Below, piece after piece: positions 9,532 through 13,677 of a stretch of DNA of 37,967 nt (positions within the stretch are counted from its first letter, which is position 1; every line of letters begins with the position of its first letter). The notes beneath the pieces are model-generated. The model saw only the letters and a list, made by a program, of their open reading frames with translations, was not told the DNA's origin and did no database searches. Location: positions 1-37,967 of the forward strand of contig JAOUHH010000002.1 in assembly GCA_029865195.1 (NCBI GenBank), written 5' to 3'. Source of the DNA: Desulfobulbaceae bacterium (GTDB lineage Bacteria > Desulfobacterota > Desulfobulbia > Desulfobulbales > UBA5123). The translations under genes were made by a program, and so were the position numbers.

Positions 9532-10044
9532 GTGATGACCGCACGGATGGAAAATACGGCATGGCGCGAGCTGGTTGCCTCCGGAATCGGGATAAATGAA
9601 ATGGCCAGGCTTACGGCGGTGAATGATTTTTTCAACCGCTTCTATTACGTGCCTGACGACCGGCATCACGGTCGCGATTACTGGGCAACCCCGGCTGAGT
9701 TTATGGAGTCCGGCGGCGGCGACTGCGAGGACTTTGCCATCGCTAAATACTTTGCGCTTCTGGATATGGGCGCGGATGCCAGCCATCTCTTTCTTACCTA
9801 TTGCCGGCTGCCGGCAACAGGCCAGGCACACATGGTCCTGGTGTACTGGTCCAAAGGGGATCAACCCCTGGTGCTCGACAACTTTATGCCGCAGGTTTTG
9901 TCAGCCTCGTATCGGCCGGATATTCTGCCGGTGTATTGCTTCAACAAAACACAAGGCTTTCTGCTGACCCCGCAATGGGGAATAGCGCATCCGCTGGATG
10001 TGCAGCAGTTGAGCAAGTGGCAAATGGTTTTGGGGAAGGTGTAA
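9532..10044 (+). CDS. Transglutaminase-like cysteine protease (BTLCP / LapG family), no signal peptide
   Basis: GGGDCEDFAIAKYFAL (Cys), GQAHMVLVYW (His) and PLVLDNF (Asp) match the BTLCP triad context. GTG at 9532 is followed by ATG at 9535. Confidence 0.75.
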   Translation: MMTARMENTAWRELVASGIGINEMARLTAVNDFFNRFYYVPDDRHHGRDYWATPAEFMESGGGDCEDFAIAKYFALLDMGADASHLFLTYCRLPATGQAHMVLVYWSKGDQPLVLDNFMPQVLSASYRPDILPVYCFNKTQGFLLTPQWGIAHPLDVQQLSKWQMVLGKV

Positions 10045-10068: not shown

Positions 10069-10389
10069 ATGAAAATTGATGTGTTTTGGATTTGGTTTGC
10101 TTGTTTCTGGCTGGCGGTTGGTATGCAGAACTTTTTAACAGTGAAGAAAAGTAGTTTTGATATTGCATACCATTTCAAAACCCAGGAGTCTGGACGTGTT
10201 GCCTTTGGGCAAATGAGCGTTACTGCTGAAAACACAGACTCTCTTTCTTTTGCAGAGGCCGGTGGTTTTATAAAAAAAGACTTGGAAAAGTCTCTTGATG
10301 AAGACGTTTCAGTTGTCGTTTTCAACGTCAACAAGAGAGAAAGCGCACGATATTGGCAACCATTTTGGAGAAAATTCGCTTCCATATAA
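10069..10389 (+). CDS. Low-GC membrane-anchored hypothetical protein (106 aa)
   Basis: TGGAGA SD upstream. N-terminal TM segment IDVFWIWFACFWLAVGMQNFL. Lies in an AT-rich island (about 10045-10400). Confidence 0.6.
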   Translation: MKIDVFWIWFACFWLAVGMQNFLTVKKSSFDIAYHFKTQESGRVAFGQMSVTAENTDSLSFAEAGGFIKKDLEKSLDEDVSVVVFNVNKRESARYWQPFWRKFASI

Positions 10390-11526: not shown

Positions 11527-11736
11527 ATGCGAACGATTGCCCATATTTTGTGGTGGATAGAGAAAGCCCTGCAACGGATCGCCAATGCTATAGGGCGTGT
11601 TGCTACTAAACTGGCATGGTGTGACTCGCTTGGAGCACCGCTGAAGACCTACAAATGGGACCAATGCCCAGATGGCTATGATGGCCCTTGCGCTTGTGCA
11701 AGCTGCCGAGATTATGCCAGCGATGATTCTTATTGA
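11527..11736 (+). CDS. Hypothetical Cys-rich small protein (69 aa)
   Basis: GGTGA lies upstream of the ATG. C-terminal CPDGYDGPCACASCRDY. GC is lower than the surroundings. Confidence 0.4.
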   Translation: MRTIAHILWWIEKALQRIANAIGRVATKLAWCDSLGAPLKTYKWDQCPDGYDGPCACASCRDYASDDSY

Positions 11737-11836
11737 TGACCAACGCTAAAAATCACGGGCGGCTTTAGCCGTCCGCGTGGATTGCAGGGTTAGCCGTTTT
11801 TGGCAATTTCAACGGGCTGCGAAGGGGGGGAAACAC

Positions 11837-12577
11837 ATGGGAAATTTTGTTGCCTCTTACGGAGGAGGAACAAACAGCACCGCTATGATTATTGAGTGGG
11901 TTGGCCGTGGGCGGCGCCTTGATGCCGTTGTTTTTGCCGACACAGGGGCAGAGAAACCGGAGACGTATTCCTTTGTGGCCCTGTTTTCTGCATGGCTCGT
12001 TGATCACGGATACCCACCAGTGGTGATTGTTCGAAATGACGGGATGCACGGCAGTCTTGAGCGCGAGTGCTTAACGAATGGTCGATTGCCGTCTGTCACG
12101 TTTGGATTTTCTTCCTGCTCCGACAAGTACAAATTGAGGCCGTTTCGCAAGTGGTTAAAGGCCTCTGGGCTGCAAAACGTGACGGTGCTACTCGGGTTTG
12201 ACGCTGGAGAGCCTGGACGGAAATCGAGGGCGTTAAAATATGCCAGTGGGTACGACAAGATTTTCCCGCTGATAGAGTGGCAATGGGGCCGGGCGCGGTG
12301 CATTGAGGCCATAGACCGATCTGGCCTGCCACGGCCAGGGAAGAGCGCCTGCTTTTTTTGCCCGAACACGAAACCGCACGAAATTTTAGCATTGCAGGAC
12401 AACCATCCGGATCTGATTGAGCGGGCTATTGCTCTGGAGAGCAACGCCGAACTCAGGAGCATAAAGGGCCTGGGGCGGGCGTGGTCATGGAAGGATTTTG
12501 TTTGTGCCGATGACGCTCAACAAAGGATGTTTGGCAGCGTTTGCATGGGGCAACCATGTGGATGCTACGACGGCTAA
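11837..12577 (+). CDS. PP-loop ATP-pyrophosphatase / PAPS-reductase-family protein (246 aa)
   Basis: ATG at 11837 follows GAAGGGGGGG. PP-loop SYGGGTNSTAM (SGGxDS-like). C-terminal Cys cluster CFFCPN...CMGQPCGC. Confidence 0.75.
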   Translation: MGNFVASYGGGTNSTAMIIEWVGRGRRLDAVVFADTGAEKPETYSFVALFSAWLVDHGYPPVVIVRNDGMHGSLERECLTNGRLPSVTFGFSSCSDKYKLRPFRKWLKASGLQNVTVLLGFDAGEPGRKSRALKYASGYDKIFPLIEWQWGRARCIEAIDRSGLPRPGKSACFFCPNTKPHEILALQDNHPDLIERAIALESNAELRSIKGLGRAWSWKDFVCADDAQQRMFGSVCMGQPCGCYDG

Positions 12578-12645: not shown

Positions 12646-13677
12646 ATGGAAAACAACGCCTTGCACGACAAATCAGTTGTTCGCGTTGCCGGTAAAGGTC
12701 GCAGGGACGACCATCCGCGCATCAAGGCGTTGCGGGCTGCTTGTCGGCTGCAGCATTTTTCTCCTCGCACCGAGGTTTGCTACGCATCATGGGTGTGGCA
12801 GTACATGCTTTTTTACTGGTCGCGCCAGGATCTTTCCGGCCAGCCGGCGGCCGAGGTGATTACCGCGTTTCTCACCGAGCTGGCCGAGCGGCGCCAGGTG
12901 GCGGCCTCCACCCAGAACCAGGCGCTCAACGCGGTGGTGTTTCTTTACAAGCATGTGATCCAGGTGGATGTGGGCGATTTCTCCCGGTTCGTGCGGGCCA
13001 AGCGGCCGCGCAACCTGCCGGTGGTCTTTTCTCGGGATGAGGCGCTGCGGGTTATCTCGCTCCTGCCTGAGCCTTACGCGCTCATGGGGGCCCTACTCTA
13101 CGGCTCCGGCCTGCGGCTCATGGAGTGCTGCCGGTTGCGGGTCAAGGATCTGGACTTTGACCGCTCCGCCATCCTGGTCAAGTTCGGCAAGGGCGCCAAA
13201 GACCGAATGGTGCCGATGCCATCAGTCACCGTCGACCGGTTGCGCTCCCAGGTGGCCCGAGCCTCTGCCCTGCTTGCCGACGATCTGGCCCACGGCTTCG
13301 AGGGCGCAACCATGGAGCCGGCCCTGGCCCGCAAGTATCGCCGGGCCGGCAAGGAGGCTGGCTGGCAGTATGTGTTCCCGGCCTCGCGGTTGTGCGTGGA
13401 CCGGGAGACTGGTTGCTTTTACCGCCACCACCTGCACGATTCCGCCCTGCAGCGCGAGGTCAAGCGGGCGGTGCGGCGCGCCGGGGTCAACAAGGCGGCC
13501 TCTTGCCACTCGTTCCGCCATTCGTTTGCCACCCACCTGCTCGAAAGCGGGGTGGACATTCGCACCGTGCAGGATCTCCTGGGGCACAAGGACATTTCAA
13601 CAACCCAGGTCTACCTCCACGTCATGCGCCGCGGCGCCGGGGTGGTGAGCCCCATGGACATGGGAGGCGTCGCATGA
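12646..13677 (+). CDS. intI: Integron-type integrase (IntI-like tyrosine recombinase, 343 aa)
   Basis: ATG at 12646 follows GGAGGAG. By-eye collinearity with IntI1: GKGAKDR; the IntI-specific insert ALARKYRRAGKEAGWQYVFPAS...YRHHLHDS; CHSFRHSFATHLL; DIRTVQDLLGHKDISTTQVYLHV. All catalytic residues are present. Confidence 0.8.
   Translation: MENNALHDKSVVRVAGKGRRDDHPRIKALRAACRLQHFSPRTEVCYASWVWQYMLFYWSRQDLSGQPAAEVITAFLTELAERRQVAASTQNQALNAVVFLYKHVIQVDVGDFSRFVRAKRPRNLPVVFSRDEALRVISLLPEPYALMGALLYGSGLRLMECCRLRVKDLDFDRSAILVKFGKGAKDRMVPMPSVTVDRLRSQVARASALLADDLAHGFEGATMEPALARKYRRAGKEAGWQYVFPASRLCVDRETGCFYRHHLHDSALQREVKRAVRRAGVNKAASCHSFRHSFATHLLESGVDIRTVQDLLGHKDISTTQVYLHVMRRGAGVVSPMDMGGVA

Follow-up and report, generated by a model that had tools for sequence, protein, structure and literature searches.

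A probable single-cassette integron with co-directional cassette polarity between the replication and packaging genes of a temperate phage

What is a gene for an integron-type integrase doing directly before the packaging genes of a phage? This question is raised by the gene intI (12,646–13,677 bp, + strand; ATG at 12,646, TGA at 13,675–13,677), which encodes a protein of 343 aa and is located in a 37,967-nucleotide stretch of DNA (contig JAOUHH010000002.1, positions 1–37,967, assembly GCA_029865195.1 of a Desulfobulbaceae bacterium), hereafter called the window. Profile searches showed that, by gene content, the window is a temperate tailed phage. An initial annotation made from the sequence alone described an IntI-type gene in a non-canonical context with no divergent attI/cassette array. 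The analysis presented here indicates that the gene probably belongs to a complete minimal integron with one cassette, placed between the replication and packaging genes of the phage; we put the probability of this at about 0.8. Computation established the identity of the integrase, its attC and attI sites, where the cassette begins and ends, and the array turnover among relatives. The new part is the geometry: the cassette open reading frames (ORFs) occupy the bottom strand of attC and point the same way as intI and the packaging genes.

The 343-aa protein matched the NCBIfam model TIGR02249 "integron integrase" with 387.3 bits (cutoff 265) in a single stretch covering residues 27–338. The XerC and XerD models stayed below their cutoffs (147 bits against a cutoff of 335 and 135 bits against 330, respectively), and XerA was likewise far under its cutoff; the Xer models aligned to the protein in two pieces, with the IntI-specific insert between them. 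Using Pfam, the domains Phage_int_SAM_4 and Phage_integrase were found. The closest solved structure was that of VchIntIA/IntI4 (2a3v, E 7e-76), and the unbroken alignment to it over residues 29–337 showed that the additional domain between patches II and III is present. Alignment of the protein with IntI1, Vibrio IntIA and Shewanella IntI showed no variation at the catalytic residues R157, K182, H288, R291, H314 and Y323 or in the IntI-specific segment A226-L227-x-R229-K230-Y231...W240...F244...R260-H261-H262. The ORF at 12,646–13,677 bp is a genuine integron integrase, neither a Xer recombinase nor the lysogeny integrase; the last role is excluded because the phage carries a separate lysogeny integrase gene (98–1234 bp, − strand; 377 aa) and a CI-type repressor gene (3538–4278 bp, − strand). 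Thus, the IntI-type assignment with its extra segment and the intact catalytic residues, both claimed in the initial annotation, were borne out; the insert passed the IntI profile and the protein did not prove to be Xer-like.

Some features of the protein concern its function more closely. At the position of P232 of 2a3v, which is presumably a flipped-base contact in VchIntIA, the window IntI has R253. The residues W240, H261 and H262 align to W219, H240 and H241 of 2a3v, which MacDonald et al. (2006) reportedly found to contact flipped-out attC bases. The window IntI also has an N-terminal extension of about 25 aa and a short insert near residue 65. The ratio of nonsynonymous to synonymous substitution rates (dN/dS) of intI against the relatives of its clade was 0.09–0.28; therefore, the gene is under purifying selection. 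The protein is presumably an active enzyme.

Both kinds of integron site were found directly upstream of intI. The predicted attI (12,578–12,645 bp, + strand) comprises the 68 bp from the crossover to the intI start codon and contains the ribosome-binding site GGAGGAG (12,633–12,639 bp). At its edge is the attI/cassette junction box GGCTAAC (12,572–12,578 bp, + strand) with a predicted cut between A12577 and C12578; the junction reads GGCTAA|C on the + strand and G|TTAGCC on the top strand, and the cut presumably falls at exactly this phosphodiester bond. The attC site (11,738–11,795 bp), recognized by the two covariance models described below, lies on the + strand, which is its bottom strand. 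It consists of the R' box GACCAAC (11,738–11,744 bp, cut A11743|C11744), a spacer (11,745–11,750 bp), the L' arm (11,751–11,756 bp), a stem-loop (11,757–11,774 bp), the L'' arm (11,777–11,783 bp) with an extrahelical G at 11,780, a spacer (11,784–11,788 bp) and the R'' box GTTAGCC (11,789–11,795 bp). This R'' box is the reverse complement of the junction box at seven of seven positions. The two sites bound one gene cassette of 834 bp (11,744–12,577 bp, + strand), which was delimited by box complementarity and by homology breakpoints in relatives. In the cassette, attC is followed by an ORF for a PAPS-reductase-like protein of 246 aa (11,837–12,577 bp, + strand; phrog_424, E 1e-34; weak Pfam match to PAPS_reduct), the stop codon of which is the TAA at 12,575–12,577 inside the junction box.

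Thus, nothing divergent was found, as the initial annotation had stated, but the context is not site-less and the integrase is not an orphan, since an attI and an attC-bounded cassette lie directly upstream in the same direction. The two stretches that had been named as candidate substrates (11,737–11,836 and 12,570–12,645 bp) are the attC and the attI. The earlier suggestion that the enzyme acts on generic hairpin-forming phage DNA is not needed, as the upstream hairpin is a standard attC.

The attC sites were recognized by comparison with L009, an IMG/VR contig. When the window was compared with L009 by BLASTN, the 60 nt in front of the PAPS-like gene (11,742–11,801 bp) matched two intergenic places in L009. 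Between its DnaB gene and intI, L009 contains five intergenic elements with conserved ends (xxxTAACG ... TTGTTAxxx) and variable central stem-loops. Read along the + strand, each element opens with a box of 7 nt that ends in AAC; after a spacer of 6 nt come the L' arm (6 nt), a stem-loop and an L'' arm that has one G in excess, and a second spacer (5 nt) leads to a 7-nt box beginning with GTT. This layout matches the architecture of an attC bottom strand. A covariance model, R1, was built from six elements (the window element and the five of L009) using loop-trimmed copies, which replaced a MAFFT alignment of full-length elements where the variable central loops had led to misaligned left arms. 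R1 scored the window attC at 69.9 bits. It also recovered the known attCs of the Shewanella M16-3 integron and, next to intI in genomes of Lysobacterales, Pseudoxanthomonas, Luteimonas and Pseudomonas, long and regular arrays. Over the window and 58 loci from phage records, metagenome contigs and IMG/VR, 63 of the 67 R1 matches were on the intI-sense strand, mostly 5' of intI, and such upstream sites were present in every contig of the clade with sufficient flank.

A second model, R2, was built from 88 sites of 11 control loci (nine bacterial genomes, the Shewanella M16-3 record and a bacterial-type array on the IMG/VR contig L013), with the elements of the phage clade excluded. Its sole match on both strands of the 38 kb was at 11,734–11,799 bp (+ strand, 37.0 bits, E 3.7e-6). 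R2 also recovered all five L009 elements and the sites of L004–L007, always on the intI-sense strand. Over 13 clade sites, in an alignment that was itself fitted to the model, 90.4% of cells were paired, compared with 72% after shuffling (reached in 0/500 shuffles) and 25–43% with slid partners, and five of six L-box pairs had compensatory changes on both sides. Placed side by side, the window attC is colinear with Xanthomonadales-type attCs. A simpler pattern search was not useful: the strict regular expression RYYYAAC...GTTRRRY combined with folding missed every real site in the Shewanella control; after relaxation it picked up two control sites, yet its matches in the window were just multi-loop chance hits inside genes, and the approach was dropped. 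An Rfam scan of the window found no family at threshold, with only a sub-threshold miRNA match; Rfam holds no attC family.

Cassette boundaries leave a specific trace. As IntI crosses over at G|TT, the R' box of each integrated attC becomes a hybrid, and the R'' box of a cassette then complements 7 nt contributed by the two ends of the same cassette and not the other box of its own hairpin. The GTT-box at the ORF start and the AAC-box at the ORF end were complementary at 7/7 positions in nine of 12 independent cassettes, while complementarity to the AAC-box of the own site was just 3–5/7 in all 12. Nine perfect matches were reached in 0/100,000 permutations. This is the hybrid-R' signature expected of cassette insertion and excision.

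The comparison of relatives placed the breakpoints at the same positions. The 68 bp from AAC to the intI ATG remain with intI while the upstream DNA differs. Downstream of TAAC, the contigs L009 and L008 share 99% identity, but their upstream sequences are unrelated; L004 and L005 share 89% identity on the attI–intI side and have different first cassettes; L220 and L221 have the common junction AAC|ATATATTC. In L006 and L007, the IntI proteins are identical, the attI is identical as well (99–100% identity past the AAC) and a distal cassette is shared at 99.5%, and between attI and this cassette the two contigs carry three cassettes and one cassette, respectively, with the break at GGCCAAC|G. 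Five cassettes are present in L009 compared with one in the window, and the arrays differ among eight related contigs. Taken together, the conserved 68 bp, the AAC breakpoints and the box complementarity identify 12,578–12,645 bp as attI, 11,738–11,795 bp as attC and 11,744–12,577 bp as one cassette. As far as a comparison of sequences allows, the array differences between contigs with identical IntI indicate recent activity in the clade. A survey of related phages for variable cargo next to intI, as had been proposed earlier, thus revealed differing arrays with breaks at AAC, and this turnover backs the idea that a phage copy could capture or exchange cargo.

Within the predicted attI, an imperfect palindrome TACCGCA-AATC-TGCAGTA was found (12,587–12,604 bp), and a palindrome is present at the same offset in all attIs of the clade. 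It starts 8–10 nt past AAC (window, L004, L006, L009, L220, L221), with arms such as CCGC/GCGG, ACTGC/GCAGT, CTGCA/TGCAG and CCGCC/GGCGG; the sequence differs partly among clade members and the covariation is weak. The palindrome might serve as a binding site for IntI, act as an operator or form a structure in the mRNA. In contrast, the canonical attI1 is described as having direct repeats. No LexA box of the form CTGT-N8-ACAG was found in attI, with the reservation that this consensus is gammaproteobacterial and may not be that of the host.

The polarity of attC relative to intI is normal, with the intI-sense strand as bottom strand and an array 5' of intI. What is truly non-canonical, and was missed in the initial annotation, is the polarity of the cassette ORFs. 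In each of the 13 clade cassettes, the ORF that is long or supported by homology runs in the direction of intI, on the bottom strand of attC. Among the segments of five canonical bacterial-type arrays, 60/67 have an ORF antisense to intI, and in three bacterial "inverted-integrase" arrays, where the array is 3' of intI, 10/11 ORFs were on the top strand, so that the bacterial controls combined have 70/78 ORFs on the attC top strand. In the phage-type cassette, attC precedes the ORF, which commonly stops in the TAA of the crossover box, and the whole array reads into intI and onward into the packaging genes. The cassettes thus depart from the usual layout, in which they are on the top strand, divergent from intI and driven by the promoter Pc; this layout is a usual property of integrons and not a strict requirement. 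By every tested defining sequence feature except the usual ORF orientation and Pc, the element is an integron and not a new kind of system.

The strand calls were controlled with the bacterial arrays: in Shewanella M16-3, Lysobacterales, Pseudoxanthomonas and Luteimonas, where the ORFs are antisense, the models likewise match the intI-sense strand. The opposite assignment, with the + strand as the attC top strand, canonical ORF polarity and an array pointing at intI, was considered. It was rejected because the 68 bp nearest to intI accompany it through changes of cassettes, because the break is at AAC on the + strand and because the models match the intI-sense strand in validated bacterial arrays. 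As a result of the reversed polarity, a bacterial cassette that entered a phage array would end up antisense, and a phage cassette in a bacterial array would be antisense to Pc, which suggests separate phage and bacterial cassette pools.

To place the lineage, the relatives of the window IntI were examined. In a search of 5.8 billion proteins, the nearest IntIs (P0002–P0009) were 61–76% identical to it, and ordinary integron integrases appeared from 56% downwards. All contigs bearing the 61–76% group are viral-type contigs or fragments. A scan of 185,579 species, with one genome per species, revealed no IntI of more than 54% identity, and scans of GTDB and of metagenomes yielded just ordinary IntIs of no more than 56% identity (for metagenomes, among the matches listed). 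A neighbour-joining tree, which has no support values, grouped the window clade with two other clades composed entirely of IMG/VR contigs, apart from genomic IntIs. Thus far the lineage has been met on viral contigs only and, judged by its sequences, appears to be phage-restricted. The genes that follow intI vary. In L009, the order is DnaB ... PAPS-like gene (89% aa identity), intI (76%), a short recombinase, HTH_17 ... HNH and TerS. In the VirSorter contig L004, intI abuts a gene for a GpA-type large terminase (TerL), followed by a lambda-type portal and a capsid gene; in L010 (IMG/VR), it overlaps a GpA TerL gene, which is followed by a portal gene; and in L220 it is followed by a GpA ATPase gene. 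No recognizable small terminase was found between intI and terL in L004 and L010. In L006 and L007, as well as in L054, which is outside the narrow group (55% identity), intI is followed by a primase gene.

Further IMG/VR loci with IntIs 40–55% identical to that of the window (L011, L015, L030, L035, L043, L054) have the same junction signature and mostly sense-strand ORFs. A TerL gene next to intI was also considered for the more distant IMG/VR loci L048, L043, L037, L038 and L028, but cannot be claimed there, since the large downstream ORFs had no Pfam match or, in L028, the ORF was ParB-like. Deep-branching IntI homologues of 38–41% identity were observed in L029 and L031–L050 (IMG/VR), on viral contigs only, and some of these loci have a DnaB gene upstream. 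The attI-like junction of L033, L035, L043 and L048 has GAAC at its end, and a conserved A(C/G)TGATTATC comes next. For L035 and L043, this junction is AGAGAAC and is matched at 7/7 positions by an upstream GTTCTCT box.

The cassette proteins of the clade were then classified. PAPS-reductase-like proteins (phrog_424) are encoded in the window and in L009, where the homologue occupies the same first-cassette position. The other families are C5 cytosine DNA methylase, DUF5131, a queuine-tRNA-ribosyltransferase (TGT)/DpdA-like protein (phrog_887) and Mom-like proteins. The latter are encoded 5' of intI, one directly at attI in L221 and one in the array of L005. The remaining cassette proteins are small and have no family assignment. 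The protein encoded 5' of intI in L005 was considered as a homologue of the window PAPS-reductase-like protein; this was rejected, as it belongs to a different cassette and is TGT-like. The identified cargo consists of DNA-modification enzymes, which presumably help the phage to evade host restriction.

If the integron works as predicted, IntI would insert circular cassettes at attI, with the crossover at A12577|C12578, and would excise them via folded single-stranded attC hairpins, with the crossover at A11743|C11744 and the + strand as the recombinogenic bottom strand. Expression of the cassette ORF would probably depend on read-through from phage transcription and not on a divergent Pc promoter, and IntI would be made together with the late and packaging proteins. 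A crude scan revealed no promoter-like sites or + strand terminator-like sites at 10,164–16,697 bp, and no minus-strand promoter-like site in or near attI and intI, so that no divergent Pc or Pint was found. Single-stranded DNA, which is abundant during lytic replication, may provide the substrate, and the cassettes may come from co-infecting phages or resident prophages.

Several observations weigh against this interpretation. The window has a single cassette, and the array dynamics are drawn from relatives with 61–76% IntI identity. In three of the 12 cassettes, the box complementarity is below 7/7 (two at 6/7, one at 4/7), and one L007 cassette has only a degenerate attC. The window attC resembles the L009 sites E1 and E3 and not E5, the site attached to the homologous cassette, which requires attC divergence or gene conversion. 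The training sites of R2 were chosen with R1, the model of the phage elements, so that R2 is not fully independent; nonetheless, these sites form regular arrays adjoining intI in bacterial genomes. Finally, co-transcription of the cassette, intI and the packaging genes depends on the crude promoter and terminator scan. As a separate observation, the L009 sites E1 (4280–4332 bp) and E3 (6001–6053 bp) are identical over 53 nt, including the AAC box, while their cassettes differ. This accounts for the single clear failure of the box-complementarity rule, and the sequences suggest gene conversion or homogenization between attCs within a phage array.

Other explanations of the locus have to be compared with the complete phage integron. 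The phage could have picked up a fragment of a bacterial chromosomal or mobile integron that has no phage-specific organization or role. Published phage integrons (Vibrio, P1, Shewanella) are of this type (PMC9892861), the Vibrio "phage" match adjoins rplT-infC-thrS, the IMG/VR locus L013, of canonical polarity, falls together with Luteimonas, and the attC type resembles the attCs of Xanthomonadales. We nevertheless consider such a passenger unlikely, as the survey of species genomes offered no bacterial source above 54% identity and the closer relatives are all on viral-type contigs or fragments. In addition, intI overlaps or abuts phage genes in several backbones (HNH here; GpA-type TerL in L004, L010 and L220), the 13/13 reversed cassette ORFs fit the direction of phage transcription, and three clades from viral contigs only group in the tree. 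It is also quite unlikely that the integron is a relic in which the sites and the gene are still recognizable and recombination has been lost. A relic would be consistent with the single cassette, with a window attI that differs at many positions from those of L009, L008 and L010, and with R253 in place of the presumed contact residue; the intact catalytic residues, the purifying selection and the differing arrays on contigs with identical IntI argue against it.

Very unlikely, in our opinion, is the co-option of an IntI homologue for concatemer or dimer resolution, lysogenic integration or assistance to the terminase, with the hairpin acting as a terminator or regulatory element. In at least five relatives, intI immediately precedes HNH/TerS/TerL or GpA TerL; this position, the lack of a recognizable small terminase in L004 and L010 and the location of the hairpin between two genes would suit such a role. 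However, the hairpin at 11,738–11,795 bp lacks a T-run and is recognized by the bacterial attC model, and the box complementarity with exact AAC breakpoints represents cassette traces that a terminator does not explain. The lysogeny integrase and repressor are located elsewhere in the phage, and in L006, L007 and L054 intI is beside primase, not the packaging genes. The complete integron therefore remains our preferred reading of the window. Beyond it, we lean slightly towards the broader view that tailed phages may have an integron lineage of their own, with a phage-restricted IntI, a private pool of reversed cassettes that would be expressed in a phage, and a fixed site where the early/middle region ends and the packaging genes begin, through which DNA-modification and anti-restriction genes would be traded during co-infection.

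A comparison with bacterial integrons (class 1 IntI1/attI1, the V. cholerae IntIA superintegron and those of Xanthomonadales) showed the same integrase family including the extra domain, attI 5' of intI, a bottom strand equal to the intI-sense strand, the same attC parts (R''/L''/L'/R', extrahelical G, variable stem-loop) and the G|TT hybrid R' box; the window attC is nearest in sequence to the Xanthomonadales type. Unlike those integrons, the present one has bottom-strand ORFs directed toward intI, attC before the ORF, an intI translationally chained to the packaging genes, the N-terminal extension and short insert in IntI, and no divergent Pc or Pint that could be found. In "inverted integrase" integrons, reportedly described by Boucher et al. 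in 2007, for example from Spirochaetes, Planctomycetes and Cyanobacteria, intI and the cassette ORFs likewise have the same direction. However, their array is 3' of intI and their ORFs are on the top strand, as was seen in L108, L093 and L078; in the present integron both are reversed, with a 5' array and bottom-strand ORFs. Accessory ("moron") hot spots near phage genome ends likewise hold variable DNA-modification and anti-restriction genes between the replication or late-regulation genes and the packaging genes; the difference here is a dedicated site-specific recombination with defined cassette boundaries in place of illegitimate or homologous recombination.

Integrons and attC clusters in phage genomes, with DNA methyltransferases among the cassette cargo, were reported by Qi et al. 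(2023; PMC9892861), and searches of one literature collection on integrons in phages turned up no other paper. The four IntI cases in that work include a Vibrio superintegron fragment, a class 1 integron on P1 and the Shewanella integron, and are of bacterial type, carried by or next to prophages or a phage-plasmid; Shewanella M16-3 was called a complete integron (PMC9892861). These cases share with the window an IntI, attC sites and cassettes inside a phage genome. Here, in contrast, the IntI lineage itself appears to be phage-restricted and the cassette polarity is reversed; a direct check of the Vibrio and Shewanella records showed the canonical layout, with ORFs divergent from intI. In the record of Vibrio phage Va_90-11-286_p16 (MK672802), intI adjoins rplT-rpmI-infC-thrS, next to which the Vibrio superintegron is usually found on the chromosome. 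Thus, this record includes host chromosome, as Qi et al. concluded.

Integrons are known as bacterial devices that stockpile adaptive genes, and the few phage cases resemble captured bacterial elements. In the present locus, the integrase lineage, the cassette orientation and the genome position all appear to be adapted to the phage, and enzymes of the PAPS-reductase-like, C5 methylase, TGT/DpdA-like and Mom types protect phage DNA from restriction. If active, the integron would supply a defined mechanism and boundaries for one class of variable phage moron regions, would predict a separate phage cassette pool and would offer a simple test system of one integrase, one attI and one attC. An integron lineage of phages, if real, would mean that some of the mosaicism of phage accessory genes arises from a dedicated, site-specific mechanism. 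Viral contigs with "orphan" integron integrases merit re-examination for attCs flanking co-directional ORFs.

The genes around the integron were annotated as follows. The DnaB gene is located upstream (8215–9531 bp). Downstream, the HNH endonuclease gene (13,674–14,039 bp, + strand; Pfam HNH) begins within the intI stop codon region (ATGA, 13,674–13,677 bp). Next is an ORF for 56 aa (14,036–14,206 bp, + strand), which had no family match in profile searches and overlaps by ATGA with HNH (14,036–14,039 bp) and with terS (14,203–14,206 bp). The gene terS (14,203–14,670 bp, + strand) encodes a small terminase subunit of the P27 family (TIGR01558, PF05119). Its end overlaps a mini-ORF (14,661–14,785 bp, + strand) for a Cys-rich protein of 41 aa with a zinc-ribbon-like pattern CPLH...C...CRGC, the stop codon of which overlaps the start of terL (ATGA, 14,782–14,785 bp). 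The gene terL (14,782–16,515 bp, + strand; PF03354, PF20441) encodes the large terminase subunit; the portal gene (17,021–18,232 bp) and further ORFs follow. The sequence thus agrees with the ATGA chain from intI through HNH, the 56-aa ORF, terS and the mini-ORF to terL that had been described initially. No tRNA genes were found in the window, and the large terminase gave no host assignment, as its best match in the GenBank phage collection was just 43% identical.

Directly 3' of terL, a small HTH_17-like ORF was observed (16,512–16,715 bp). In L004, a similar small ORF (3365–3619 bp), the N-terminus of which looks like a helix-turn-helix by eye, is located 3' of the GpA-type terminase gene; a small protein of this kind might be the DNA-recognition subunit in L004 and L010. 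Upstream of the integron, a short tyrosine recombinase is followed by an HTH_17/excisionase-like ORF (10,463–11,427 bp). The recombinase consists of a catalytic domain only (about 207 aa if an internal ATG is the start) and gave sub-threshold matches to models of FimB/FimE-type invertases and to Xer models. In L009, the pair is located downstream of intI (9111–9967 bp), and it looks like a separately mobile or rearranged module; a search for inverted repeats around 10,463–11,427 bp that could explain the shifted position found nothing convincing. Two further genes are uncommon in phages, namely one for a BTLCP-type transglutaminase-like cysteine protease right after DnaB (9532–10,044 bp) and one for a BRCT-domain protein in the early leftward region (2030–2668 bp). 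At 10,001–10,500 bp, a stretch that covers orf106 (10,069–10,389 bp) and the spacer before the short recombinase, the GC content falls to 43% compared with about 60% for the genome.

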